Assembly (NCBI GenBank): GCA_028716945.1
Contig: JAQUOT010000001.1
Span: 187,927-251,926 of the forward strand
Direction: 5' to 3'
DNA: 64,000 nucleotides
From: Candidatus Nanoarchaeia archaeon
Lineage (GTDB): Archaea; Nanobdellota; Nanobdellia; SCGC-AAA011-G17; JAFCDX01
Part shown: positions 1,187 to 64,000 of the stretch, in pieces
Layout of the letters: every line of letters begins with the position of its first letter
How positions within the stretch are numbered: the stretch's first letter is position 1
The notes under the pieces: generated by a model
The model's database searches: none
Told to the model about the DNA's origin: nothing
The model's input: only the letters and a program-made list of their open reading frames with translations
Made by a program: the position numbers and the translations under genes

Positions 1187-3832
1187 TTATTTTTTAGAAG
1201 AAAGTTCAAGTCTAGCTTTTTGTTGGTTTCTTATTTTTTTGAAAATATAATCTAATTGGTTTTTCTTCCAACCTTTTTTAACCAAAGCATCTTTAATATC
1301 AATTTCAGATTTTTTATCTGCCAATTGTTTTTTAACATATGCTTCTAATTTTATTTCTTGTTCTTTATTTGAAATTGGAGATCCTCTTTTTATTATATAA
1401 TATTGCCAATATATGAAAACTCCAACAATTACAACTACTACAAATAATATTATTAAAATATACCATGGGAAACTTGATCCACAATCGGCCTTACACCATC
1501 CCTCTTCTAATGGATGACATACTCCATCTCCACATTGATATTCTGGTTCTTCAGTTATTTCTGTTTTAGTTGTAATAGAACATTGTTCTGAAGTAGAACT
1601 TAACTGATTTCCTGTGGTTGTATCATAAGTATAAACTGTTCTTGTTCCTATTCCATCTCCTTCGGGATCTATACAATCTCCTAATCTCTGTTCGTAAGAA
1701 CTTTGACTAGCCATAACAGAAGTTATTATACTACAAATTCCACCAATACAACATTTAACTGAATCTGATGAAGCTACAGAAATAAATTGTCCGGTTGTTC
1801 CAGTACATTGTTGATTTTCTAAACATATTTGTCCATCTAAATTATTACAAGTATAATCAGAATAATCTATTGTAAGTTCTTTACATTGCCCAGTACTAAG
1901 ATCTCTTGATTGACAAGACACACATTCTTCATCTTCTAAAGTACAAGTAGTAGTACAACTTGGATCACATGCATCTCCTTTCCCATCATTATCACAATCT
2001 GCTTGATCCTCATTATAAATGTATATGCAATTATCTTCATCATCACAAATTCCATCTTCATCATAATCATCTTCACATTCTAAGCAAGCAGCATTAGATA
2101 CACAAGCACTATCTGCACAATCTGTTAATCCATTACAATTATTATCAATATTATCAGTACAACTAGTTTCTGATTGAGCACAAGAAGAAGGGGTACATCC
2201 TCCATTATTACATCCATACCCATATGTTTGACAATCAACAACTAAAGTCCATACATTATTTTTACATTCTTGTACATTAGTTCCTAAACATCTTAACTGA
2301 TTTTCTTGACAAACAGCAGCTATACAACTTGTAGCAGATGTACAACAATTTAAACAATCACTTACTCCAGTTATAAGACTAGAACATGTTTGTCCAGATG
2401 TACAACAAACACCATTTTTTTGAGCACAAGTTTGTGAATTAGAAGAAGTAGTACCACATTGATTAGCAGTGCCTGCACCACCACAAGTTTCAGCAGCACT
2501 AACATTACAAGTTAATGTCCCTGTTTTAGATAGATTAGTTCCACAATTTGTTGAAACAATTTTATTTCCACAAAACGAACTTAGGTCTGGAGTAAATATA
2601 ATGGGAGTACATCCACTTCCTCCTACGCCTGCAGCACCACTAACAGTACAACTTTTAATTAATGAAAATTGATTAGTACATGCAGCATCTGTACAATATT
2701 GTTGCCCACCTATACCGGGATTAAAAACTTGACAAATAGACCAAGTTGAACAAGTTGATGTTGTACAAACTCCTTTAGATCCACTTCCTCCTGAAGAAGA
2801 AATATTTGAACTATTAATTTTTTTACAAAGGGTACCAATATCTCCTATATCTCCAACATTACATTTTGAATTTGGTACATATGTTGTACAATTATAAGTA
2901 GTATTTACCCACCTTGTTCCTCCACAATAATAAAAATTTCCAGAGGTACATAAATATTTTCCCCTCATACCAGCAGTACAATTTATTCCATTAAAGTTAA
3001 TTTGAGAAGTATCTCCACAAGTTTTAGCAGTAAATACTACTTTATTTGACAAAGCTCCATTCCATACCCAAACAACATATTTTTGTCCAGGTTCTAAAAC
3101 ATAACTTGGAGATAAGGGTTGTACATTTCCAGCTACATCTCCAGAACCGGTTAATTTTATATTAAACTCATTAAGTGTAAAGGTTTCGGTTGCTTTTGAT
3201 GTATCTTTTACTTCTATAGCATAATAGGTTGATGTAGAAGGATCTGCATTACTTATTTCTCCTTTAAAAACATCAATACTATAAGTTCCACTACTAGGAA
3301 CACTTCCACCACTAAAAGTTATATTTACTTTTGATTTAGTTCCTTCACAAGAAGTTGTAATAGTTGAAGATAAAGTTACGGGGGTTATTATACTTCCTGC
3401 TCCACCCGAAGTTGTGGGTGTAACACATTTTCCACTGCTACATATTTTACCATAATCAGAACAATCTATTTTTCCAATATAAAATGAATTTACAGTATTT
3501 CCACAATACCATTCTCCTAAAAGAGTACCTGTAGTATCTTGTCCAATATCTTTAAGACAATAATCAGAACCTACTACTTGGGTTGTAGAGCTAGAACCAA
3601 TCGCAGAAGTAGTTAATGTAATTTTACTAATTTTACCTTGGATATTATAATTCCAATAACTAGAACTAGAACCATCTGATTTTATACATGAATAAGTAGA
3701 AGCTTCTAAAGTTCTTGTATTATCTGAATTTGTTCCAAATAAATTAGTTAAAAAATTATTTATTGAAAAAGCAAATACAATTGGAGTTACTAAGATTAAT
3801 AATAAAGAAAGTACAATCAAGCTCTTTTTCAT
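1187..3832 (-). CDS. Giant Cys-rich surface protein (signal peptide, many Cys-rich and beta-rich repeats, C-terminal TM helix, short basic cytoplasmic tail)
   Basis: ORF track 1187..3877. I moved the start to Met-16 (ATG 3830-3832) because everything upstream is the conserved promoter shared with the copy at 1146. C-terminus has the TM helix FPWYILIILFVVVVIVGVFIYW plus a lysine-rich tail. Confidence 0.6.
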   Translation of the reverse strand: MKKSLIVLSLLLILVTPIVFAFSINNFLTNLFGTNSDNTRTLEASTYSCIKSDGSSSSYWNYNIQGKISKITLTTSAIGSSSTTQVVGSDYCLKDIGQDTTGTLLGEWYCGNTVNSFYIGKIDCSDYGKICSSGKCVTPTTSGGAGSIITPVTLSSTITTSCEGTKSKVNITFSGGSVPSSGTYSIDVFKGEISNADPSTSTYYAIEVKDTSKATETFTLNEFNIKLTGSGDVAGNVQPLSPSYVLEPGQKYVVWVWNGALSNKVVFTAKTCGDTSQINFNGINCTAGMRGKYLCTSGNFYYCGGTRWVNTTYNCTTYVPNSKCNVGDIGDIGTLCKKINSSNISSSGGSGSKGVCTTSTCSTWSICQVFNPGIGGQQYCTDAACTNQFSLIKSCTVSGAAGVGGSGCTPIIFTPDLSSFCGNKIVSTNCGTNLSKTGTLTCNVSAAETCGGAGTANQCGTTSSNSQTCAQKNGVCCTSGQTCSSLITGVSDCLNCCTSATSCIAAVCQENQLRCLGTNVQECKNNVWTLVVDCQTYGYGCNNGGCTPSSCAQSETSCTDNIDNNCNGLTDCADSACVSNAACLECEDDYDEDGICDDEDNCIYIYNEDQADCDNDGKGDACDPSCTTTCTLEDEECVSCQSRDLSTGQCKELTIDYSDYTCNNLDGQICLENQQCTGTTGQFISVASSDSVKCCIGGICSIITSVMASQSSYEQRLGDCIDPEGDGIGTRTVYTYDTTTGNQLSSTSEQCSITTKTEITEEPEYQCGDGVCHPLEEGWCKADCGSSFPWYILIILFVVVVIVGVFIYWQYYIIKRGSPISNKEQEIKLEAYVKKQLADKKSEIDIKDALVKKGWKKNQLDYIFKKIRNQQKARLELSSKK

Positions 3833-3873: not shown

Positions 3874-5895
3874 TCAAAATAAAGGTTTTATTCTGGTTTC
3901 TTTCAAAGCTTCCTTAATTTGTTCCTCTTTCCACCCTTTTATTCTTAAAGAACTTATAATTTGTTCTTTTGGAATACCTTGATTTATTTTAACTTGAATA
4001 TAATTTGATAATCTTGCTAAACTTAATTCTTTTTCAATATCGGATTGTGGCCAACCTGCTCTTTCTAATTCCTCTTTTATATTCTTCAAAGGAACTTTTG
4101 CATTTAAAGATTTTTGAATATATTCTTTCATTTTTTCAACATTAACAGGTCTTACTTTTATTGTAGGTTCTTGTTTTATTTCTTTTACAAAAGTTTGAGG
4201 AGCAACTTCTTTTGGTTGAACTATCGGACTTGATTCTTCAACAACTGCTCTTTTTCTTTGTACATAAGTATAAATTATAATTACTAAAATCATAATGAAA
4301 ACTATTCCAGAAATTAAACTTACTCCAATAAGCACCTTATTTGATTTATTTTCAAGATTAGTGTTAGTACCTAAATTAACATTTGTAGTTGTTCCTGCTA
4401 AAACAGTAGAAGTACAAGAAATAGAACAGCAAATTCCTGATCCCGAATGTAATAAAGTAGAACTACTACAAGTTTGATTACTTCCACAAACATAACCATT
4501 TTCTAAAGAGCAAGAACAATCTGAATCTCCTCCAACGCAAGATATAGAACAACCATCATTTATTCCACAAGTAGAACCAGTACAAGATTCATTAATTGCA
4601 GGTCTTCCTGTTAAAGTTCCACAATTATTTTCATCAATACAAGTTCTTGTTCTTACATTATTAACACAAGAAGTCCAATTTGTACAATTCCAAGTTTCAG
4701 AACAGGAAGAAGTAGAATTTGTAATATTAATTAAGAATAAATTACCAACAACATACAATCCTAAACTATCATTAGCACTAAATCTTATTAAATTGGTTCC
4801 AGTCCAGTTTGCTTTTGGAACAAATTCTGCTTCATCATTAGAATTTATAAAAATAGAAATAGAATTATTTCCGGTGAAATTATAAATTAATTTTTGTCCA
4901 TCTGGTTCTGAGAAATAATCCTCTAATTCTAAACTATCATTGGTATTTTTTCTCCAAGACATATTATCAAAATTATCTTTTAATATAGGAGGAGAATTTA
5001 ACATATCAATACTGCTTGAATTTACATAAGTTCCTTTAATCGTATCGTTAGCACTAATAGTACATGTCCATTCATCTATATGACTTTCAGTTATCTGTAC
5101 AGAAATATTACAAGATTTTCCATTTACCCAAGAATCTCCAGAACAAGATACATCTCCAGATTTAAATGGACTAGCAAAATTAGTTTCATTCCACAAAATG
5201 TATTTAACATTAACAGTACTACTATCCGTATCTTTAACAATAGAAGAACAATTTACATAATCTTTTACTCTAAACTTATTTGAACCAGTTAAATTAGTAA
5301 AAGAAACATCTGTTATTGTAGGAGGATTAGTTGTTACAGGAGCAGAAACTGTAAAACTTTTTGTATCTGAAATTAAAACATCTGCACTGTAATTTAAAAT
5401 GAATTCTAAAGTATAAGTTCCAGCACTTAAGGCAGATAATCCAGAAAAAGCAGATATAGGAGTACTTACAGTAACTTCAGAAAGCGTTGAAAATGCTCTT
5501 CCAGGTTGTTCAGGATTTTCCCAAGCCCAATCAGGACTATCATGACTTCCATCTTTAAAAATTTGACCATCAATACAATTTTTTGGATTTGCATTTGAGT
5601 TAGTTAAAAAATTTTCTAAAGTTAGAGTACTACGTTGTATAACTTGGTCTCCAGAATCTTTTATACCTATATAAACATTTGAAGACCCATTACAAGGAAT
5701 AACATCGCCTGCTAAAAATTTTATTGAAATATCTCCAGTTAATGATTGCCCTGCAGTTATAGTATCTAAATCAATATTATCTTTAACAACGTTTCCAGTA
5801 ATAGATGGCTTCATTAACATAAAAACTAAAAATGAGAATACAAATATTGCAAATATAAAAACGCTCAATTCTCTATCTTTTTTAATATGTACCAC
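3874..5895 (-). CDS. Large surface protein: signal anchor, Ig/PKD-like beta domains, Cys-rich stalk, TM helix, cytoplasmic tail with repeated K-G-W-x-x-Q motif
   Basis: 673-aa ORF. N-terminal hydrophobic segment; C-terminal Cys-rich region (CSETWNCTNWTSC...), then TM helix VLIGVSLISGIVFIMILVIIIY and a tail carrying ...RAGWPQSDIEKEL... and ...RIKGWKEEQIKEAL... Confidence 0.55.
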   Translation of the reverse strand: MVHIKKDRELSVFIFAIFVFSFLVFMLMKPSITGNVVKDNIDLDTITAGQSLTGDISIKFLAGDVIPCNGSSNVYIGIKDSGDQVIQRSTLTLENFLTNSNANPKNCIDGQIFKDGSHDSPDWAWENPEQPGRAFSTLSEVTVSTPISAFSGLSALSAGTYTLEFILNYSADVLISDTKSFTVSAPVTTNPPTITDVSFTNLTGSNKFRVKDYVNCSSIVKDTDSSTVNVKYILWNETNFASPFKSGDVSCSGDSWVNGKSCNISVQITESHIDEWTCTISANDTIKGTYVNSSSIDMLNSPPILKDNFDNMSWRKNTNDSLELEDYFSEPDGQKLIYNFTGNNSISIFINSNDEAEFVPKANWTGTNLIRFSANDSLGLYVVGNLFLINITNSTSSCSETWNCTNWTSCVNNVRTRTCIDENNCGTLTGRPAINESCTGSTCGINDGCSISCVGGDSDCSCSLENGYVCGSNQTCSSSTLLHSGSGICCSISCTSTVLAGTTTNVNLGTNTNLENKSNKVLIGVSLISGIVFIMILVIIIYTYVQRKRAVVEESSPIVQPKEVAPQTFVKEIKQEPTIKVRPVNVEKMKEYIQKSLNAKVPLKNIKEELERAGWPQSDIEKELSLARLSNYIQVKINQGIPKEQIISSLRIKGWKEEQIKEALKETRIKPLF

Positions 5896-17188: not shown

Positions 17189-17338
17189 GGAGCGGTAGCT
17201 CAGAAAGGTTTTGAAGTTTAAGACCTTGAGCAACCTGGGAGAGCATAGAAATATCTCAAACCACGCTGAAGCCGTGGATGAAAGGTTATACGTCTAGTAT
17301 ACCTTGCCAAATCGGGGGTTCAAATCCCCCTCGCTCCA
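17189..17338 (+). tRNA. tRNA-Phe (anticodon GAA) with three insertions: D-loop about 27 nt, 16 nt at position 26/27, about 31 nt in the variable region
   Basis: Manual fold: acceptor GGAGCGG/TCGCTCC (G-U at pair 7), D-stem GCTC/GAGC, anticodon arm CCACG-CTGAAGC-CGTGG, T-arm GGGGG-TTCAAAT-CCCCC, discriminator A. The variable-region insert forms a hairpin TATAC-gtcta-GTATA. Confidence 0.5.
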
Positions 17339-18026
17339 TTTTCTTTATATTTTTAATATTAGAACTTCTTATTAATTTAATAAAAGAGGAGGCATTATTA
17401 TAACCGCTTATTTGTATTTTATATTTTTCATACCTTTTATTAGTTCTTTTATCTATATAATTTTCATGTCCTACATAATGATCTATCTTTTGAATTTTAA
17501 TCCAATCAGATATTTTGTATATTAAATTTTTATCTTTTAGACCAAGATTAATAACTGGATAAAATTTATATTTTCCGTGATTCTTTTTTAAACACAAAGA
17601 ACCATCTGTATCAAAAATTCCTTTAATGAATGCTTTAGCATAAATTTTATTATCCCATATCCATCGAGGAACCTTATTTCTATAATTTATTTTTTTATAA
17701 CCTATAATATTAAGAAAAGATAATATCCCTTTAGATCTCTTTGTTAAGATTAAAGTATTAATCTTTTTCTTTTGATATAAATTCATCTTTACATTGAATA
17801 AAAACAAAACTTTATCTTTAATATAGTTTGAATAATTCCTCTCATCTTTGAGATTACTAAAAATAGAAAAAATATAATCATTGCTTCCTAAATTATAATA
17901 AACATGGCCATCTCCAGACAAAATACCTAAAAATTCTGACAAGTCTCTAGAAGAGGATTTAGGAAAAATAATTTTATTCTTAATATCTTGGTGACTTAGT
18001 TGAATATCTGATAAATCAAATTTCAT
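17286..18026 (-). CDS. LAGLIDADG-family homing-endonuclease-like protein, copy 1
   Basis: Motifs LGILSGDGHV and KGIFDTDGSL (two LAGLIDADG-type helices, so a single-chain enzyme). Start set at MKFDLSDI (ATG 18024-18026) because upstream sequence is conserved non-coding in copy 2. The last about 17 codons are antisense to the tRNA-Phe 3' half. Confidence 0.55.
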   Translation of the reverse strand: MKFDLSDIQLSHQDIKNKIIFPKSSSRDLSEFLGILSGDGHVYYNLGSNDYIFSIFSNLKDERNYSNYIKDKVLFLFNVKMNLYQKKKINTLILTKRSKGILSFLNIIGYKKINYRNKVPRWIWDNKIYAKAFIKGIFDTDGSLCLKKNHGKYKFYPVINLGLKDKNLIYKISDWIKIQKIDHYVGHENYIDKRTNKRYEKYKIQISGYNNASSFIKLIRSSNIKNIKKMERGGFEPPIWQGILDV

Positions 18027-18048
18027 GATTAATAAAAAGCGAATTTGA

Positions 18049-18115
18049 TTTATAAATCTGGCGCGCACCCATCTGCAAGTTGCAATTTGTTAGAATATAT
18101 ATTTTGTGGAATATA
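18049..18115 (-). promoter_or_regulatory. Conserved about 65-bp upstream element of the LAGLIDADG paralogues (TATA box TTTATAAA about 23 nt before the ATG, plus GC-rich palindromic block)
   Basis: tttataaatctggcgcgcacccatctgcaagttgcaatttgttagaatatatatttt is nearly identical at 63404..63460. Contains palindromes GCGCGC and TTGCAA-C-TTGCAA. Confidence 0.4.
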
Positions 18116-18163
18116 GATAGACGCCTTAGAAACCTTTAAATATAATCTAAGATTAATTAAGAT

Positions 18164-56013: not shown

Positions 56014-56183
56014 TAATCAACTTCATTCTTAACTCACAGCGCTCAAATAATTATCCCTTCTTATAAGACTTATAACCTTAGTTCTTAACTCTGAGAGTTA
56101 GCAACAGTTATGATGTTGCTCTAGTAAACTATTATATCCTAAATCACAATAATATTTAAAAAGATAATTGAACTAAATTTAGT

Positions 56184-56366
56184 ATGAAAAACTCGTTAAA
56201 TGAGCTACTTATTTATCTAGGGATATTGATAGGATTATTTAATACATTTATGATACCAAATATATTGGAGATATCTAAAATATTCTGGTGGATTTCTGGT
56301 ATCGCGGTATTAATATTTACTATACCTACGCTTATTAAAGCATATCAAGTTATTATAGGCAAATAA
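56184..56366 (+). CDS. Small 2-TM membrane protein (hypothetical)
   Basis: 60-aa hydrophobic ORF. Confidence 0.25.
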   Translation: MKNSLNELLIYLGILIGLFNTFMIPNILEISKIFWWISGIAVLIFTIPTLIKAYQVIIGK

Positions 56367-56384
56367 ATTATAGGGGTTAAAAAG

Positions 56385-56636
56385 ATGTTTAATAAAAAAG
56401 ATTTATCAAATGTTAAAACAATATTCTTGAGCCCATTATTTTGGAAATATTCTACAATCACTTTATCAGAAATATTTTGTGTTTTTGTTATTTCCAATAT
56501 ATTATTTTCTACTGACCCTTGGTTTACAAATCTATATAAAACCCCCTATGTTATTTTCTTATTATTATTCCTCTTCCTTTATTATGTAATGGAAATATTT
56601 AAACAAAGGGAAAACTTACAAAAAGTAAAAATATAA
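56385..56636 (+). CDS. Small 2-TM membrane protein (hypothetical)
   Basis: 83-aa hydrophobic ORF preceded by an SD-like ggggttaaaaag. Followed by hairpin TTATCTT-ctcg-AAGATAA plus a T-tract (terminator-like). Confidence 0.25.
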   Translation: MFNKKDLSNVKTIFLSPLFWKYSTITLSEIFCVFVISNILFSTDPWFTNLYKTPYVIFLLLFLFLYYVMEIFKQRENLQKVKI

Positions 56637-56861
56637 AATAGACATCTGTCGATTTATCTTCTCGAAGATAATAATCTTTTTATACCTCTTTATCCTTATA
56701 CTAAAAACAGCGCACAAAAGTCTGATTAACAAAACAAAGGACAGGAAACTGACCTTAGTAGAGTTAAGGACAAAGTTGGTTCCGCACGGCGGGAGCATCT
56801 ATAATTTTACTATTTCTAAATTATAAATAAACTTTATATAGTTGCTTCACTTAATTATATT

Positions 56862-57827
56862 ATGTTAAGGTTAGAAATTCCTAAAGAAGATTTGGTAAAT
56901 CTATATGAAAAAGAGAAACTTACAACTTTTCAAATAGCGGAAAAACTTAATTGTTGTCAAGCAACAATCTGGAAAAGATTAAAAGAATATGATATAAAAA
57001 CAAGAATTTCTGGAATTGAGAGGGTTAAAATAACAAAAGAAAAACTTTTTGATTTATATATAAATAAAAAATATTCTACTTGGAAAATTGAAAAAATAAC
57101 TGAAATCCCAAGGGGAACGATACATAGAAAACTTAAAGAGTTTGGAATTCAATCAAGAGATATTTCCGACTCCCATATTATCTATGAAAAAAGAGATTTT
57201 TCTGGGGATCCTTTAGAAAAAGCTTACCTTATAGGATTTAGAATTGGGGATCTGGGAGTTAGAAAAAGAGGTGCTAAAAGTAAATTAATCTGTGTTGCTA
57301 GTGGAAGCACCATAGAAGAACAGATAATTCTAATAAAAAATTTATTTAAAAATTATGGAAAAGTTTGGATTAAAAAATCAAAAAATAATAAAATAAATGT
57401 ATATGTATACCTTAATTTATCTTTTGGTTTTTTATTAGATAAAAAGATTCCAAAAGAATTAGAAAAAAACAAAAAACTATTTTTTGCATTCCTGGGAGGA
57501 TTTACAGATGCGGAAGGGAGTATGAAATTAAATAAAAATATGGCTTATTATTCTTTAGGAAATTATGATAGTAAATTATTATTTAAGATATATAACTATC
57601 TAAATAAATATGGAATAAAATGTAATAAACCTCATTCAGATAATAGAATTGGAACTTTCAATAGTCAGGGATATAAATACAACTCAAATTATTGGACATT
57701 AAAAATTTGTAGAAAAGAAGAATTATACAAATTACTTAAAGAATTAAAACCTCACATTAAACATAAAAATAAAATAAAAGATTTAAATATAGTAGAAAAT
57801 AACCTAATCGAAAGGATTAAAAGTTAA
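56862..57827 (+). CDS. LAGLIDADG-family endonuclease-like protein with two N-terminal HTH repeats, copy 3
   Basis: Two HTH-like repeats (...TTFQIAEKLNCCQATIWKRLKEY... and ...YSTWKIEKITEIPRGTIHRKLKEFG...), then LAGLIDADG-type motifs LIGFRIGDLGV and LGGFTDAEGS. Confidence 0.5.
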   Translation: MLRLEIPKEDLVNLYEKEKLTTFQIAEKLNCCQATIWKRLKEYDIKTRISGIERVKITKEKLFDLYINKKYSTWKIEKITEIPRGTIHRKLKEFGIQSRDISDSHIIYEKRDFSGDPLEKAYLIGFRIGDLGVRKRGAKSKLICVASGSTIEEQIILIKNLFKNYGKVWIKKSKNNKINVYVYLNLSFGFLLDKKIPKELEKNKKLFFAFLGGFTDAEGSMKLNKNMAYYSLGNYDSKLLFKIYNYLNKYGIKCNKPHSDNRIGTFNSQGYKYNSNYWTLKICRKEELYKLLKELKPHIKHKNKIKDLNIVENNLIERIKS

Positions 57828-57844
57828 AAAGATAATATATTAAC

Positions 57845-59371
57845 ATGAAAAAGTTTTACGTAACAACCCCAATATATTATGTAAATGATATAGCTAGTAT
57901 AGGCCATGCTTACACTACTTTTGCAGCAGATACCTTAGCTAGATGGCATAGATTAAAAGGAGAAGATGTTTTTTTCTTAACAGGTTTAGATGAAAACTCT
58001 CAAAAAACAGTCAAAGCAGCAGAAACTGCAGGTGTTAAAGATTTAAAAGAATATACTAATCAAATGGCTTTGAAATGGACTTCTACTTGGAAAAATCTAA
58101 ACATTTCTAATAATGGATTTATAAGAACTACTGAAGCTAAACATAAAAAATTAGTAAAAGAATTCTTTATGAAAGTGTATGAAAAAGGGGATATTTACAA
58201 AGGGAAATATGAAGGATTATATTGCGAAGGATGTGAATGTTTTTATACTGAATCAGACCTAGTAGAAGGAAAATGTCCTTTTCACAAAACAGAACCAAAG
58301 TTTATATCTGAAGAAAATTATTTTTTTAAATTAACAAAATATGCAGATAAAATATTAACTTACATAGAAAAAAATCCTGATTTTATTTTACCTAATTCCA
58401 GAAAAAATGAAGTTGTAGAATTTATTAAGATGGGATTAAAAGATATTAGTATTTCTAGACCAAATGTTGATTGGGGAATTCCCTTACCAATAGACAAAAA
58501 TCATCATTTCTGGGTATGGTTTGATGCTTTACCAAATTATATCACTGGAGCTCCAAAATATTGGCCTGCAAATTGTCATTTATTAGCAAAAGATATTTTA
58601 AGATTCCATTGCGTTATTTGGCCTGCTATGTTAATGAGTGCAGGTTATGACTTACCAAAACAATTATTTGTACATGGATTTTTAACTATTAATGGACAAA
58701 AGATGTCAAAATCTTTAGGCAATGCTATAGACCCAAATGTTTTAGCTCAAAAATATTCTGTAGATTCATTAAGATATTATTTAATGCGTAGCATTCCATT
58801 TGGAGAAGATGGAGATTTTTCAGAAAAAGCATTAATAACAAGAACAAATACAGAATTAGCAGATTCTCTGGGTAATTTATTAAATAGAGTTGTTTCTATG
58901 TGTGAAAAATATTATGATTCTAAAATACCAAAAGCAAAAGAAGACAAAGAATTAAGTTCAAAATTAGATTTTAAAAAAATTGATTCCTTAATATTAAATT
59001 ATAAGTTACATGAGGCTTTAGCAGAAATATTTTACTTTGTAGATCAATGTAATAAATATGTAAATGAAAAAGAACCTTGGAATTTAGCTAAAAATCAGAA
59101 AGAAGATGAACTTGAAAAGGTTTTATTTAATTTGGCAGAATCATTAAGAATAATTTCTCAATTAATTTATTCTTTTATGCCAGAAACAGCAGAAAAAATA
59201 AATGAACAGCTTGGATTTAAATTAAGAGATAGTTTTGACTTGAAATGGGGTAATGCAAAATCAAAAGGTATAAAAAAAGGAGAAACTTTGTTTAAAAAAA
59301 TTGGCCTAACTGATGGACTTAAAAAATCTTCAAATGATGGTTTAAAAGGGGGACCTAGAAATGGACTTTAA
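57845..59371 (+). CDS. metG: Methionyl-tRNA synthetase, catalytic core only
   Basis: ...PIYYVNDIASIGHAYTT... (HIGH), C-x2-C...C-x2-H knuckle (CEGCEC...CPFH), KMSKSLGN. Confidence 0.85.
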   Translation: MKKFYVTTPIYYVNDIASIGHAYTTFAADTLARWHRLKGEDVFFLTGLDENSQKTVKAAETAGVKDLKEYTNQMALKWTSTWKNLNISNNGFIRTTEAKHKKLVKEFFMKVYEKGDIYKGKYEGLYCEGCECFYTESDLVEGKCPFHKTEPKFISEENYFFKLTKYADKILTYIEKNPDFILPNSRKNEVVEFIKMGLKDISISRPNVDWGIPLPIDKNHHFWVWFDALPNYITGAPKYWPANCHLLAKDILRFHCVIWPAMLMSAGYDLPKQLFVHGFLTINGQKMSKSLGNAIDPNVLAQKYSVDSLRYYLMRSIPFGEDGDFSEKALITRTNTELADSLGNLLNRVVSMCEKYYDSKIPKAKEDKELSSKLDFKKIDSLILNYKLHEALAEIFYFVDQCNKYVNEKEPWNLAKNQKEDELEKVLFNLAESLRIISQLIYSFMPETAEKINEQLGFKLRDSFDLKWGNAKSKGIKKGETLFKKIGLTDGLKKSSNDGLKGGPRNGL

Positions 59372-60681: not shown

Positions 60682-60786
60682 TTTTTCCTCCTTTTATTGA
60701 GTTATATGAGAGAAATGACTCCCAACCACCTAAGAATCTAAAGGACTTTAGGTTTATAAAGATTTTTATAAGGTTTTAAAAGTATA

Positions 60787-60882
60787 TGAGCCCGCGGAGA
60801 TTTGAACTCCGGGCCCCCACCAATGATTTGGTTTAAATCCAATTTATCAGAGTGGTGCGCTACCAGGCTGCGCCACGGGCTC
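60787..60882 (-). tRNA. tRNA-Ile (anticodon GAU) with about 22-nt intron at or near the canonical 37/38 position
   Basis: Reverse complement: acceptor GAGCCCG/CGGGCTC, D-arm GCGC-AGCCTGGTA-GCGC, anticodon stem CCACT/GGTGG, loop CTGATAA followed by insert attggatttaaaccaaatcatt, T-arm CGGAG-TTCAAAT-CTCCG, discriminator A. Confidence 0.55.
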
Positions 60883-60961
60883 ATGAGATATATTGTTAAA
60901 AGATAATTTATAAGGTTTTTGAATTGATAAAGTTTAAATAATATTAAATTTTAACTATCCT

Positions 60962-61630
60962 ATGCAGAGGTGGCTACATAAATTAGAACATTGGGTAGAT
61001 AAATTAATACCTATCTCTTTAATTGTTTTAATTGGTTTAATCATAGGAGAATTATTCTATAAAGAACAAATACATCCTTATTTAACTTTTGTAACAATAG
61101 CAGATTGGGGTATAATAGGTTTATTTGTTATAGATTTAACTTTTAAATGGTTCAGAGTAAGAAATATTCCAAAATTCTTAAAAAAATATTGGTTAGATAT
61201 TTTAGCTATATTTCCGTTTTTTTTAGTTTTTAGAGCTTTAGAAGGAGTTGGAGAATTAATTACTGTAGTAAGCGAATACTTTACTCCTACACAAAAAGTA
61301 GTTCATGCTGGAACAGAAATAGGTAAAGAAGTTATAATAATAGAGGAAGGTACTGCTAAAATAATTAAAGAAGCTGAAGCAGCAGGAAAATTATCAAGAA
61401 CAGAAAGATTTGCAAGATTTTTAAGACCTTTAGCAAGGGCTCCAAGATTTTTACATTTAACAGATAAAGATACAAAAAAAGAATTTAAAAAAGAGATTAA
61501 ATTTATAGAAAAAGAAGAAAGAAAAGTAGTTAAAAAAGAAGAATCTTTCTTTGTAAGATTATATAAACATATAGTAAAAGTAATTGTCTTCTTTGAAAAA
61601 CCTTCTCATCATAAAAAGAGAAAGATTTAA
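60962..61630 (+). CDS. Membrane protein, ion-channel-like (hypothetical)
   Basis: About 4 TM segments, ...WLDILAIFPFFLVFR... resembles channel S5/S6-type helices. C-terminal charged domain. Confidence 0.3.
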   Translation: MQRWLHKLEHWVDKLIPISLIVLIGLIIGELFYKEQIHPYLTFVTIADWGIIGLFVIDLTFKWFRVRNIPKFLKKYWLDILAIFPFFLVFRALEGVGELITVVSEYFTPTQKVVHAGTEIGKEVIIIEEGTAKIIKEAEAAGKLSRTERFARFLRPLARAPRFLHLTDKDTKKEFKKEIKFIEKEERKVVKKEESFFVRLYKHIVKVIVFFEKPSHHKKRKI

Positions 61631-61673
61631 AAGAAGCGGCAGTTAACAACCACCGTCAAATTTTAAATAAAAA

Positions 61674-62687
61674 ATGGAAAAAAAAGAAATACTTGCACAT
61701 TTTAGTTATGGAAGTGCTATAAGAAATGCTATAGAAAAAATAACTAATGCTAATCGTGGAGTTTTAGTTGTTTTTGTTAAAGATAAGGGTATTAAAAAAA
61801 TAAGTGTTGGTGGTTTTAAAATAAATGAAGAGTTTTCTGAAGAAAGACTTGCTGAATTAGCAAAATTAGATGGAGCAATATTGGTAGATAATAAACTACA
61901 AAAAATAATTAGTGCTAATGTCTTATTAAATCCGAGTATAAAAATTCCTAGTACAGAAACAGGTACAAGACATCAAGCAGCAGAAAGAACTGCAAGACAA
62001 TTAGATACAATGGTTCTTGCTATTTCTGCAAAAACAGGAACTGCAATGGTATATCATGGAAATGGTAAATTAAAATTAAATAATTTAGGTAAAATATTCA
62101 CAAAGACTGGAGAAGCACTAAGAATTATTGAAAAGCATAGAGAATTATTTAAAGTTTTAATAAAAAAGTTTGATACTTTTGAATTATTAGAAATGGTTAC
62201 ATTAGAAGACCTTGCTTCTATATTTCAAAGAGAAAAAATAATGGATTCTGTTGCAGATATAATCTCTGTTTATTTAAGCGAATTAGGTGATGAAGGAGAA
62301 TTAACAGAATTACAATTAAAAGAAATTATAACTTATGTTCATGCAGAATTAGCTGCAATTATGGCAGATTATCATGATTATTTTAATTTTGATAAGATAA
62401 TTGAAGAATTAAAAGACTTAAAACGTGATGAAATTGTAGTTAAAGAAAACATTTTTAAAATATTCTTAGATAATAGAAAAAAAGAAGATACATTAATACC
62501 GAAAGGTTATAGAATATTAAAGAACATCCCTATTTTAACAGAAGAAAATATAAAGTTATTAATGGAAACTTTCCCAAGTTTAAAAGAATTAATTTCTGCT
62601 CAAGAAGAAGAATTAGCTGCTATCAAATCTATAGGAAATAAAAAGGCTAAAGCTATAAGAGAATATCTATTAAAAGCACAGATTTAA
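61674..62687 (+). CDS. DisA-like diadenylate cyclase (DAC domain, helical linker, C-terminal HhH)
   Basis: ...LDGAILVD..., ...TGTRHQAAERTARQ..., ...AISAKTG... (DAC motifs DGA / GTRH..A / S..TG). C-terminal ...EEELAAIKSIGNKKAKAIREYL is a helix-hairpin-helix. Confidence 0.55.
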   Translation: MEKKEILAHFSYGSAIRNAIEKITNANRGVLVVFVKDKGIKKISVGGFKINEEFSEERLAELAKLDGAILVDNKLQKIISANVLLNPSIKIPSTETGTRHQAAERTARQLDTMVLAISAKTGTAMVYHGNGKLKLNNLGKIFTKTGEALRIIEKHRELFKVLIKKFDTFELLEMVTLEDLASIFQREKIMDSVADIISVYLSELGDEGELTELQLKEIITYVHAELAAIMADYHDYFNFDKIIEELKDLKRDEIVVKENIFKIFLDNRKKEDTLIPKGYRILKNIPILTEENIKLLMETFPSLKELISAQEEELAAIKSIGNKKAKAIREYLLKAQI

Positions 62688-63382
62688 GAATTATTTCTAA
62701 AATAATAATATTTTTTCCAATGTTTGGGGTTATTAGGAGAGATAATTTTCATCCATTTATTTAACATAAATTCTCCTCTAATTGAAACCTTATATAAATC
62801 TAACCAATTATGATTTTTATGTTTATAAGAATAGATTGTAGAACGAATTCCTAATTTGTTTATTAAATTATTTAATTGTAATCCTAAAGGTTTAGAAGTG
62901 GTGCTTATCTCTAAACGAGGATATAATTTTTTATATTTTGGTTGTAAATATAAAGTTCCATCCGTATCAAAGATTCCTTTAACCACATTAATAGTATACT
63001 CCTTTCTATTTAAGAAACAAGAAGGTATACAAATATCAAATTTTTTACCAAGAGGTAATTTAAGAATTTTATTTTTAAATTCGATTAATGAATCATCCCA
63101 AATTTGAAATCCAAATACTTTTGTAGAAGGCATTTCTTTTGGTTTTATTTTTAAATCATAAACTTTTTTATATAAATCTATAATTTTATTATTATAATGT
63201 TCTTTATCATCAAACATATGCCCCCTTAAAGAATAAAGTCCTTTAGACGTATTTCCGTTTTTGTAAAAATTCATACTTCCATCTCCAATATGCAATCCTG
63301 TTTCTTCTGCTAATTCTATTATTGGTTTTTCTGGAAGTATAAGTTTAGTGCTTTGCTTAATGTCAGATAAATCAAACTTCAT
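62684..63382 (-). CDS. LAGLIDADG-family homing-endonuclease-like protein, copy 2
   Basis: MKFDLSDI... (first 8 aa identical to copy 1), motifs LHIGDGSM and KGIFDTDGTL. Confidence 0.55.
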   Translation of the reverse strand: MKFDLSDIKQSTKLILPEKPIIELAEETGLHIGDGSMNFYKNGNTSKGLYSLRGHMFDDKEHYNNKIIDLYKKVYDLKIKPKEMPSTKVFGFQIWDDSLIEFKNKILKLPLGKKFDICIPSCFLNRKEYTINVVKGIFDTDGTLYLQPKYKKLYPRLEISTTSKPLGLQLNNLINKLGIRSTIYSYKHKNHNWLDLYKVSIRGEFMLNKWMKIISPNNPKHWKKYYYFRNNS

Positions 63383-63403
63383 AATTAAGATAAGTAAATT
63401 TCA

Positions 63404-63460
63404 TTTATAAATCTGGCGCGCACATCTTGCAAGTTGCAATTTGTTAGAATATATATTTTA
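63404..63460 (-). promoter_or_regulatory. Conserved upstream element of the LAGLIDADG paralogues, second copy
   Basis: tttataaatctggcgcgcacatcttgcaagttgcaatttgttagaatatatatttt, versus 18049..18115. Confidence 0.4.
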
Positions 63461-63488
63461 GAGAATATATTTTAAATAAAAAGAAAAG

Positions 63489-63618
63489 CGCCTTAGGGAG
63501 GACTCGAACCTCCGACCACCTGATTAACAGTCTCACCTTTCCATATTGGAAAACAGGTGCTCTACCCTTCAGATCTTCTGAACCTAAAAGGCCAGATGGT
63601 TTGCTGAGCTACTAAGGC
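63489..63618 (-). tRNA. tRNA-Asn (anticodon GUU) with two introns (about 36 nt in the D-loop; 22 nt inside the anticodon stem, position 30/31)
   Basis: Reverse complement: acceptor GCCTTAG/CTAAGGC, D-stem GCTC/GAGC. After removing ttttccaatatggaaaggtgag the anticodon arm is CCTGA-CTGTTAA-TCAGG. T-arm GGAGG-TTCGAGT-CCTCC, discriminator G. Confidence 0.5.
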
Positions 63619-63657: not shown

Positions 63658-64000
63658 TTAATCAATAAAGTCTTTATTCTTTATCTTTTCAGGCAGATAT
63701 TTATCAGAAATAAAGCTTATAATACCACTTCTTAATTTATAACTATCCGCCCATTTAGCATAAGCATTCCATCCATTAAAACTTTCTAATAGATTATCAT
63801 AAATAATTTCATTGTTTTTGTATTGAGATATTCTAAATAATATTTTTCTTATATTTCTTTTTCTTAATAATTTATGATAATAGAAATTTCTAAAACCTAC
63901 AAAGTCTATGCCTTTTGATAAAGAGATTATTTTTGATTTTTCTGAATGCAACTCTAGTTTTAGCTCTTTATTTAGGAAATTATTTATTTGTTCCTTCCAA
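63658..64000 (-). CDS. Reverse transcriptase, C-terminal part (ORF is open to the window end)
   Basis: ...GIDFVGFRNFYYH... (RT block 7, F-L/V-G-F) and ...ESFNGWNAYAKWADSY... (thumb/X-domain G-W-x-x-Y motif). No in-frame stop up to position 64000. Confidence 0.5.
   Translation of the reverse strand, partial: WKEQINNFLNKELKLELHSEKSKIISLSKGIDFVGFRNFYYHKLLRKRNIRKILFRISQYKNNEIIYDNLLESFNGWNAYAKWADSYKLRSGIISFISDKYLPEKIKNKDFID

Follow-up and report, generated by a model that had tools for sequence, protein, structure and literature searches.

Free-standing LAGLIDADG genes beside tRNA-Ile and other translation genes in Nanoarchaeota: possible long-lived homing endonuclease lineages

Three LAGLIDADG genes, here termed copies 1, 2 and 3, lie in a 64,000-nucleotide (nt) stretch of contig JAQUOT010000001.1 from a Candidatus Nanoarchaeia archaeon; the whole stretch is called the window below and has a base composition of 27% G+C. 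Copy 2, the main subject, is an intact free-standing gene on the minus strand, and its family is found beside the gene for tRNA-Ile(GAU) in most of the related loci analysed. Around copy 2, the order of a partial reverse transcriptase (RT) gene, a tRNA-Asn gene, a conserved upstream element, the LAGLIDADG gene and a DisA-like gene had been read correctly in an earlier note on this DNA. The locus contains the following features, in coordinates of the window.

63658 to 64000, minus strand: 3' part of an RT/maturase-like open reading frame (ORF), cut by the window edge (TIGR04416, E=1.2e-6; Top6A-type models, E~0.003; synteny)
63489 to 63618, minus strand: tRNA-Asn(GUU) with two insertions, identified by alignment to intron-free Asn tRNAs of relatives and by ARAGORN after removal of the insertions
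63383 to 63470, minus strand: upstream element of copy 2, shared with copy 1, comprising a TATA box, a GC-rich box, a TTGCAA repeat and a AAAATATATATT box
62684 to 63382, minus strand: copy 2, a free-standing LAGLIDADG gene of the tRNA-Ile-linked family, an intact ORF of 232 amino acids with two motifs
61674 to 62687, plus strand: DisA-like diadenylate cyclase gene with DAC, DisA-linker and HHH domains, convergent with copy 2
60962 to 62687, plus strand: 1.8-kb insertion splitting copy 2 from tRNA-Ile, comprising a channel-like ORF (60962 to 61630) and the DisA-like gene (61674 to 62687)
60908 to 60931, minus strand: remnant of the 3' end that the endonuclease ORF originally had; its stop codon falls within the TATA box of tRNA-Ile
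60786 to 60883, minus strand: tRNA-Ile(GAU), the usual partner gene of the copy 2 family, with one insertion located at the canonical position or beside it

Copy 2 and its tRNA-Ile site

The copy 2 protein matches the Pfam family LAGLIDADG_3 (PF14528, E=2.6e-9), and the Pfam domain search found no extra domain on it. Each LAGLIDADG helix is closed by one catalytic acidic residue, D34 (..HIGDGS) and D141 (..FDTDGT), and both Asp residues are invariant across 29 aligned sequences, including copy 1. The AlphaFold (AF2) model, built on 29 sequences, has a predicted local distance difference test score (pLDDT) of 95.8 and presents the order of secondary structures expected for the single-chain, two-motif LAGLIDADG fold. 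Its top Foldseek matches are I-Tsp061I, PI-PfuI, the TliVMA intein endonuclease and I-DmoI, with E-values of approximately 1e-11 to I-Tsp061I, PI-PfuI and I-DmoI; meanwhile, the profile of the copy 2 family retrieves intein endonuclease domains and I-DmoI from the PDB. By its modelled fold and its retained active site, copy 2 is a complete single-chain, two-motif LAGLIDADG enzyme, with cleavage predicted. A location of the gene within an intron or intein was rejected, since the gene possesses its own TATA box and complete flanking genes, and neither an Rfam intron family nor flanking extein sequences are present. A WhiA-like regulator was rejected as well, because the catalytic Asp residues are kept and no helix-turn-helix domain exists; the label "WhiA" on some relatives is only an annotation.

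In the window, tRNA-Ile(GAU) is now 1.8 kb from copy 2. Just before its TATA box, TTTATCAATTCAAAAACCTTATAA encodes ..FINSKTL followed by a stop codon, which aligns with the end of the orthologue in the related locus L003 (..YFINSKPL followed by a stop codon), where the same tRNA-Ile comes 26 nt after the end of the endonuclease gene. The alignment of this remnant with the L003 orthologue indicates that the DisA-like and channel-like genes were inserted into the last ~10 codons of copy 2, the 3' end of which overlaps the DisA-like gene by 4 nt.

Relatives of copy 2 are numerous (537 detected, 50–60% identical), and nearly all derive from assemblies of Nanoarchaeota, Woesearchaeota or Pacearchaeota. 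A scan of one genome per species yielded 98 relatives; 80 loci were kept, approximately one per assembly, 75 of them with enough downstream sequence. ARAGORN and Rfam, which miss multi-intron tRNAs, were replaced by alignment to intron-free homologues combined with a T-arm/acceptor script. A tRNA gene is situated at most 75 nt from the family 2 stop codon in 64 of these 75 loci, and 60 of the 64 adjoining tRNAs have a GAU anticodon loop, corresponding to tRNA-Ile(GAU). Several of the 11 loci without a scored tRNA (L005, L045, L072 and L080) contain tRNAs that the script did not parse. The copies of the family are clearly not, for the most part, away from tRNA genes, the outcome that the earlier note had named as speaking against its proposal.

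The commonest spacing between the family 2 stop codon and the tRNA is 26 nt, and the ORF typically ends in ..AAAACTTATAA, with its stop codon within the TATA box of the tRNA. Among the 64 tRNA-adjoining loci, the tRNA is co-directional and downstream in 53, and convergent and overlapping in 11. Furthermore, the tRNA lies upstream of the family 2 gene in divergent orientation in L039 and L064 and in co-directional orientation in L067. Since all four relative arrangements occur, it is the adjacency that is kept, and not one particular transcription unit. In relatives of the clade of the window, the gene order is Top6B, Top6A, tRNA-Asn, endonuclease and tRNA-Ile; the clade-specific flanking genes differ while the family 2/tRNA pair persists. 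Outlying members of the family (in Aenigmarchaeota and Micrarchaeota assemblies, plus two more) adjoin tRNA-Asn-like or tRNA-Thr-like genes.

Some further details of the tRNA-Ile junction were observed. Convergent family 2 members display a C-terminal read-through into the tRNA, as in copy 1. In L079 (~3775–3830), L036 (~4665–4705) and L147 (974–1071), repeats of 8–14 nt of the tRNA-Ile 5' end, followed by an insert of 44–84 nt, are located between the TATA box and the full tRNA, and these could be acceptor-stem or D-loop introns, or repair footprints. In addition, the distance from the stop codon and TATA box to the tRNA start is fixed at approximately 26 nt in L001–L080, which recalls the leaderless tRNA transcripts of Nanoarchaeum equitans. 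Such transcripts have been reported in that organism, from which RNase P is absent. An Rfam scan saw no RNase P RNA within the 64-kb window, which cannot show a genome-wide absence.

Partner genes of the other families and the shared upstream element

Copies 1 and 3 represent two further families (families 1 and 3, with copy 2 in family 2), and their features in the window are listed below.

17189 to 17338, plus strand: tRNA-Phe(GAA) with three insertions (Rfam, 31.6 bits), convergent with copy 1
17340 to 18026, minus strand: copy 1, a paralogous LAGLIDADG gene, 28% identical to copy 2
18027 to 18129, minus strand: upstream region of copy 1, ending in CTAAGGCG (18122 to 18129), a remnant of a tRNA-Asn 3' end
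56862 to 57827, plus strand: copy 3, a LAGLIDADG gene with helix-turn-helix repeats, 321 amino acids, D130 and E218 invariant
57845 to 59371, plus strand: metG (MetRS), the conserved partner of the copy 3 family, starting 18 nt after the copy 3 stop codon

Copy 1 is convergent with tRNA-Phe(GAA) and overlaps it: the reading frame extends as far as 17286, crossing the 3' end and T-arm of the tRNA in antisense (17286–17339) and ending in ..MERGGFEPPIWQGILDV and a stop codon. The family is small (15 proteins), and its members are convergent with, and abut or overlap, tRNA-Phe(GAA) in all seven loci (the window, L083, L084, L086, L087, L168 and L170). The family of copy 3 is large (512 matches, 50–68% identity), and metG begins 20–60 nt after the family 3 stop codon in 70 of the 71 metagenome loci with downstream sequence. 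Only about a quarter of the family 3 loci have a tRNA in the 1 kb upstream, and the synteny with tRNA-Gly(CCC), Gln and Glu is loose and partial. Copy 3 itself is 849 nt from tRNA-Glu. It was accordingly rejected as a tRNA-linked gene, its true partner being metG. Between tRNA-Glu and copy 3, approximately 850 nt (56014–56861) contain no convincing ORF in an otherwise compact genome; this region holds a promoter-like stretch (GGACAA, GC-rich, TATAAT) just before the leader of copy 3.

The family 3 gene is preceded by a conserved leader, CTATTTCTAAATTATAA..TTTATATAGTTGCTTTATTTAATTAT. Among loci L088–L167, a shortened 5' piece of metG (11–15 codons, M..KKFYITTAIDYV and a stop codon) precedes this leader and is joined directly to it in at least 14 of 67 loci. 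The stub can differ in allele class from the working metG: L093 combines an AIDYV stub with a TIPYAN gene, and L107 shows the reverse. In the simplest reading, the stubs would reflect insertion at about codon 14 by a unit bringing its own replacement 5' end from a donor.

Two other paralogues adjoin translation genes in the same manner. A LAGLIDADG gene lies 3 nt before cysS in L169 (406–2639), and another lies 4 nt before a tRNA-Gln(CUG) with a D-loop insertion in L098 (1184–1878). Because metG and cysS are partners as well, the common feature of these genes is an adjoining, highly conserved translation gene, and not a tRNA gene with introns. The earlier statement that all three endonuclease genes of the window lie beside tRNA genes is thus borne out for copies 1 and 2, and has to be withdrawn for copy 3. 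By a rough estimate of our own, the probability is about 6e-4 that, of three LAGLIDADG genes in 64 kb with four tRNA clusters, two would fall within ~110 nt of a cluster by chance; the comparison across related loci dispels what doubt is left. The co-localisation of copies 1 and 2 with tRNA genes is real, family-specific and conserved across a phylum.

Copies 1 and 2 also share an upstream element. In the alignment of 63383–63470 with 18027–18116, 77 of the 87 aligned bases are identical, and two exact 21-22-mers are common to both elements, with none expected by chance. The same element had been noticed earlier at 63404–63460, and it is in fact longer, approximately 88 nt. Its TATA box (63403–63411) is situated 20 nt before the ATG of copy 2, next to the GC-rich box GTGCGCGCCAG (63412–63423), and a TTGCAA-C-TTGCAA repeat, composed of two palindromic TTGCAA hexamers, lies within 63428–63449. 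The element is probably a promoter with an operator-like site, and the position of the TATA box suggests that the copy 2 mRNA is leaderless or nearly so. An RNA gene, or an intron containing the copy 2 ORF, was rejected, because there is no Rfam match and a TATA box 20 nt before the ATG fits a promoter better.

The element alignment extends into CTAAGGCG; at copy 2 these bases form the tRNA-Asn 3' end, and at copy 1 they stand alone. This lone remnant indicates that the upstream region of copy 1 is a recent copy of the copy 2 element; the transfer may have occurred by ectopic recombination between the two copies. Misassembly through a repeat was rejected, since the copies differ at 10 of 87 positions and the relatives L001–L004 keep the order of tRNA-Asn, element and gene. 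Two Logan contigs (L081 and L082, short-k assemblies of the same organism) break 51 nt before the copy 2 ATG, inside the element, as expected for an exact repeat of 32 nt.

Related elements exist upstream of orthologues in other genomes, with an almost identical one in L003. Before family 1, family 2 and a few family 3 genes of different genomes lies the motif CACTGGACAA(C), with a GC-rich stretch and then a TATA box after it (for example L033, L067, L084, L018, L039, L096 and L151; 63412–63449 in the window). It occurs 21 times in 1.1 Mb of related loci, and 13 of the 21 occurrences lie 46–173 nt before a family 2 start codon. No convincing resemblance was seen when the promoter motif was compared by eye with the tRNA sequence. 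Clade A of family 2 displays, in place of the CACTGGACAA motif, a conserved TTATAAAG....AGAGCRTTATTTTGAT before the ATG.

On the other side of tRNA-Asn, the similarity of the RT-like ORF corresponds to the C-terminal third of group II RT/maturases (TIGR04416); 598 homologues were found, of which the full-length ones have ~330–360 amino acids. In relatives, the gene at this position, directly before tRNA-Asn, is Top6A. The ORF ends in ..ISFISDKYLPEKIKNKDFID, and its last ~20 codons resemble the Top6A C-terminus in a weak match (E=0.57). The RT gene may have entered the 3' end of top6A or become fused to it. A group II intron around the ORF was rejected, as no domain V/VI was matched and the ORF lies only ~40 nt from tRNA-Asn.

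Homing, domestication and the tRNA introns

These genes are, in our judgement, somewhat probably long-lived homing endonuclease lineages, that is, site-specific free-standing genes that persist beside conserved translation genes by intronless homing. Family 2 would hold one fixed site in the Nanoarchaeota chromosome beside tRNA-Ile(GAU), usually with its stop codon in the tRNA TATA box. The enzyme would cut alleles of the tRNA-Ile region without the endonuclease gene, and recombinational repair from a gene-carrying allele would then transfer the endonuclease gene together with its own promoter element and the adjoining tRNA sequence. The shared upstream element would form the promoter end of the mobile unit, and the paralogous families would act likewise at tRNA-Phe(GAA), tRNA-Gln(CUG), metG and cysS.

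Several findings argue for such mobility. Each family possesses a fixed partner, tRNA-Ile(GAU) for family 2, tRNA-Phe(GAA) for family 1 and metG for family 3. Empty sites exist within the same synteny: L090 contains an Hsp20-like gene, 66 nt, tRNA-Ile and L15e without an endonuclease gene, and L147 presents an inverted version of this arrangement, again without the gene, while the Hsp20-like/L15e synteny is occupied by an endonuclease gene in ~50 other loci. The sample of empty sites for family 2 is small. Likewise, only 3 of the ~20 metG genes in family 2 loci carry family 3. Furthermore, insertion footprints are found in the metG stubs of family 3, a tRNA-Asn 3' remnant stands in the copy 1 promoter region, and family 2 genes are found in every orientation to the partner tRNA.

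Other findings weigh against homing. Family 2 is as conserved as L15e (63.5% versus 64.7% mean pairwise identity) and DNA ligase (61% versus 59.5%), and in clade A it is more conserved than these two (0.78–0.80 versus 0.61–0.72). Its pairwise distances correlate with those of the genes on either side (Spearman 0.82 for ligase), and no identity-outlier pair pointing to a recent transfer between lineages was found among family 2 pairs. Few copies look disrupted (~6 of 80, from split tblastn matches). In addition, 17 of the 64 partner tRNA-Ile genes are intron-free yet stand beside a nuclease predicted to be active, which means that the target is not simply the resident tRNA sequence. The loci did not reveal a cleavage site. 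The empty L090 and the occupied L093 proved too diverged to place the insertion boundaries. Synonymous codon identity, slightly higher in family 2 (0.53–0.56) than in the flanking genes (0.45–0.49), gives no clear sign of recent transfer; all values are near saturation, and codon bias could explain the difference.

The main rival explanation is a domesticated nuclease or DNA-binding protein, a former homing endonuclease kept by vertical inheritance for a host function in cis at the tRNA-Ile locus, such as regulation of the tRNA-Ile gene or of its own promoter, or a programmed break as by HO in yeast. The L15e- and ligase-like conservation, higher still in clade A, and the distances following the flanking genes fit this explanation, as do the approximately single copy per genome assembly, the synteny specific to each clade and the strong conservation of the promoter-proximal motifs (CACTGGACAA, GC-rich stretch and TATA box). 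However, the catalytic residues are kept, and no domain has been added as in WhiA or HO; the empty sites lie within the same synteny; and the genome of the window itself tolerates the separation of copy 2 from tRNA-Ile. Moreover, paralogues adjoining such unrelated conserved genes as metG and cysS, together with the insertion footprints, are hard to fit with one function tied to tRNA-Ile. Domestication is regarded as a serious rival, though rather unlikely, and homing is favoured over it.

The tRNA introns bear on a further explanation. Of the five tRNA genes in the window, four carry insertions, as had been noted before: three in Phe, two in Asn, one in Gln (D-loop), one in Ile and none in Glu, the Gln call being weak (sequence read by eye and an Rfam match of 26.9 bits). 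Both proposed introns of tRNA-Asn, one of them inside the anticodon stem, were seen by alignment to intron-free Asn tRNAs, with boundaries good to ~3 nt: ~36 nt in the D-loop (~63568–63603) and ~22 nt in the 5' strand of the anticodon stem (~63532–63553). ARAGORN and Rfam both miss the native gene, and ARAGORN calls a full-length tRNA-Asn(GTT) once the insertions are removed. Across family 2, 47 of the 64 partner tRNAs have 1–3 insertions and 17 have none. The insertions are concentrated on both sides of the anticodon, at the canonical 37/38 site and within the anticodon stem (5' strand), while a few are found elsewhere; such positions are ordinary for archaeal tRNA introns.

The earlier note had hinted at a link between the endonucleases and non-canonical tRNA introns. 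In a fuller form of this idea, the enzymes would cut intron-free tRNA alleles at the intron site, the intron would protect the resident allele, and both would spread by collaborative homing. The frequency of insertions in the partner tRNAs and their clustering around the anticodon agree with this idea, and both flanking tRNAs in the clade of the window share the anticodon-stem insertion site, with introns that have a similar end, GGTGA(A/G)A. For family 3, the different allele classes of the metG stub and the working metG point to co-conversion of flanking DNA. Nevertheless, the 17 intron-free partners show that introns are not required for the association and are not present wherever the endonuclease gene is. 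In L147, introns occur in a tRNA-Ile gene that has no endonuclease gene beside it. The protein-coding partners, metG and cysS, have no introns, so that the phenomenon is not specific to tRNA introns, and the insertion positions are the usual archaeal ones. The common GGTGA may be explained by pairing with the exon CACC, a structural need. The link to non-canonical introns is not supported in this form, and collaborative homing at the intron site is considered very unlikely. It is also unlikely, if a little less so, that the endonucleases drive gene conversion of the adjoining tRNA genes and thereby spread and select non-canonical introns that disrupt their recognition sites. Introns could nonetheless be spread by co-conversion during homing, though none of the observations requires it.

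Finally, a meaningless adjacency, an ancestral order that became fixed in compact genomes through the overlap of the tRNA promoter with the ORF end, is highly improbable: the stop codon in the TATA box, the rigid spacing of ~26 nt, which lets any breakpoint damage one of the two genes, and the partly conserved synteny could produce it, but the pair survives changes of orientation and side, outlasts the turnover of flanking genes between clades, and has counterparts in independent paralogous families that each have their own partner gene.

Relation to known systems and significance

By profile and structure, the nearest proteins are I-DmoI, I-Tsp061I, PI-PfuI and TliVMA, which have the same single-chain, two-motif fold and conserved catalytic acidic residues. 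I-DmoI and I-Tsp061I are situated in rRNA introns and PI-PfuI and TliVMA in inteins, whereas copy 2 is intergenic with its own promoter, at ~20% identity.

Yeast HO and bacterial WhiA are domesticated LAGLIDADG proteins; WhiA lost its catalytic residues and gained a helix-turn-helix, and HO gained a zinc finger. Family 2 resembles them in that a fold stemming from homing endonucleases is strongly conserved and, it appears, vertically inherited, but copy 2 keeps its catalytic Asp residues and has neither a helix-turn-helix nor another added domain. Mobile units at essential genes can leave the gene working, as with mobE, inserted in nrdA of phage Aeh1, and with integrative elements, which can carry a replacement tRNA 3' end. 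Similarly, family 3 would bring a replacement metG 5' end and leave a stub; here the enzyme class and the host are different, and the case is known from sequence comparison alone. Zeng, Bonocora and Shub reportedly described in 2009 the collaborative homing of F-CphI and the cyanophage psbA intron, the model behind the intron proposal of the earlier note. There, too, a free-standing endonuclease gene lies beside an intron-carrying gene. In contrast, the partner tRNA is often intron-free here, the introns would be protein-spliced archaeal ones, and cleavage is predicted.

The nearest functional analogue is SegB of phage T4, a GIY-YIG homing endonuclease whose free-standing gene lies within a cluster of tRNA genes and for which cleavage has been demonstrated (PMC2330249). 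SegB recognises the sequence encoding the T-psi-C stem-loop, and its homing carries neighbouring tRNA genes along (PMC2330249). Both systems place a free-standing endonuclease gene among tRNA genes, but they differ in several respects. The fold here is LAGLIDADG and not GIY-YIG, the gene resides in a cellular archaeal chromosome and not in a phage, and cleavage is predicted. Furthermore, SegB represents one locus in one phage group, whereas the present genes form a phylum-wide set of paralogues with gene-specific partners.

The earlier note knew of no description of a LAGLIDADG/tRNA-gene association, and likewise none was found in a search of the full-text literature, which was not exhaustive; the pattern of gene-specific LAGLIDADG partners appears to be undescribed. 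Phages and organelles are the main known hosts of free-standing homing endonuclease genes. Distinctive here are the cellular archaeal chromosomes, the LAGLIDADG paralogues that each have their own translation-gene partner (tRNA-Ile, tRNA-Phe, tRNA-Gln, metG and cysS), the stop codon overlapping the tRNA TATA box, and at least one family conserved like a ribosomal protein.

If the genes are mobile, they would bring about gene conversion and allele replacement at essential genes of DPANN archaea and, simultaneously, offer a pool of new meganuclease specificities. If conversion-driven spread of introns were also true, it would provide a DNA-level mechanism for the gain and "transposition" of archaeal tRNA introns, through the collaborative homing of a free-standing LAGLIDADG gene and protein-spliced introns. 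If family 2 is domesticated, it would be an unrecognised core protein of Nanoarchaeota acting at a tRNA gene. Either way, the pairing of these endonuclease genes with tRNA genes makes the gain and exchange of archaeal tRNA introns open to experimental test.

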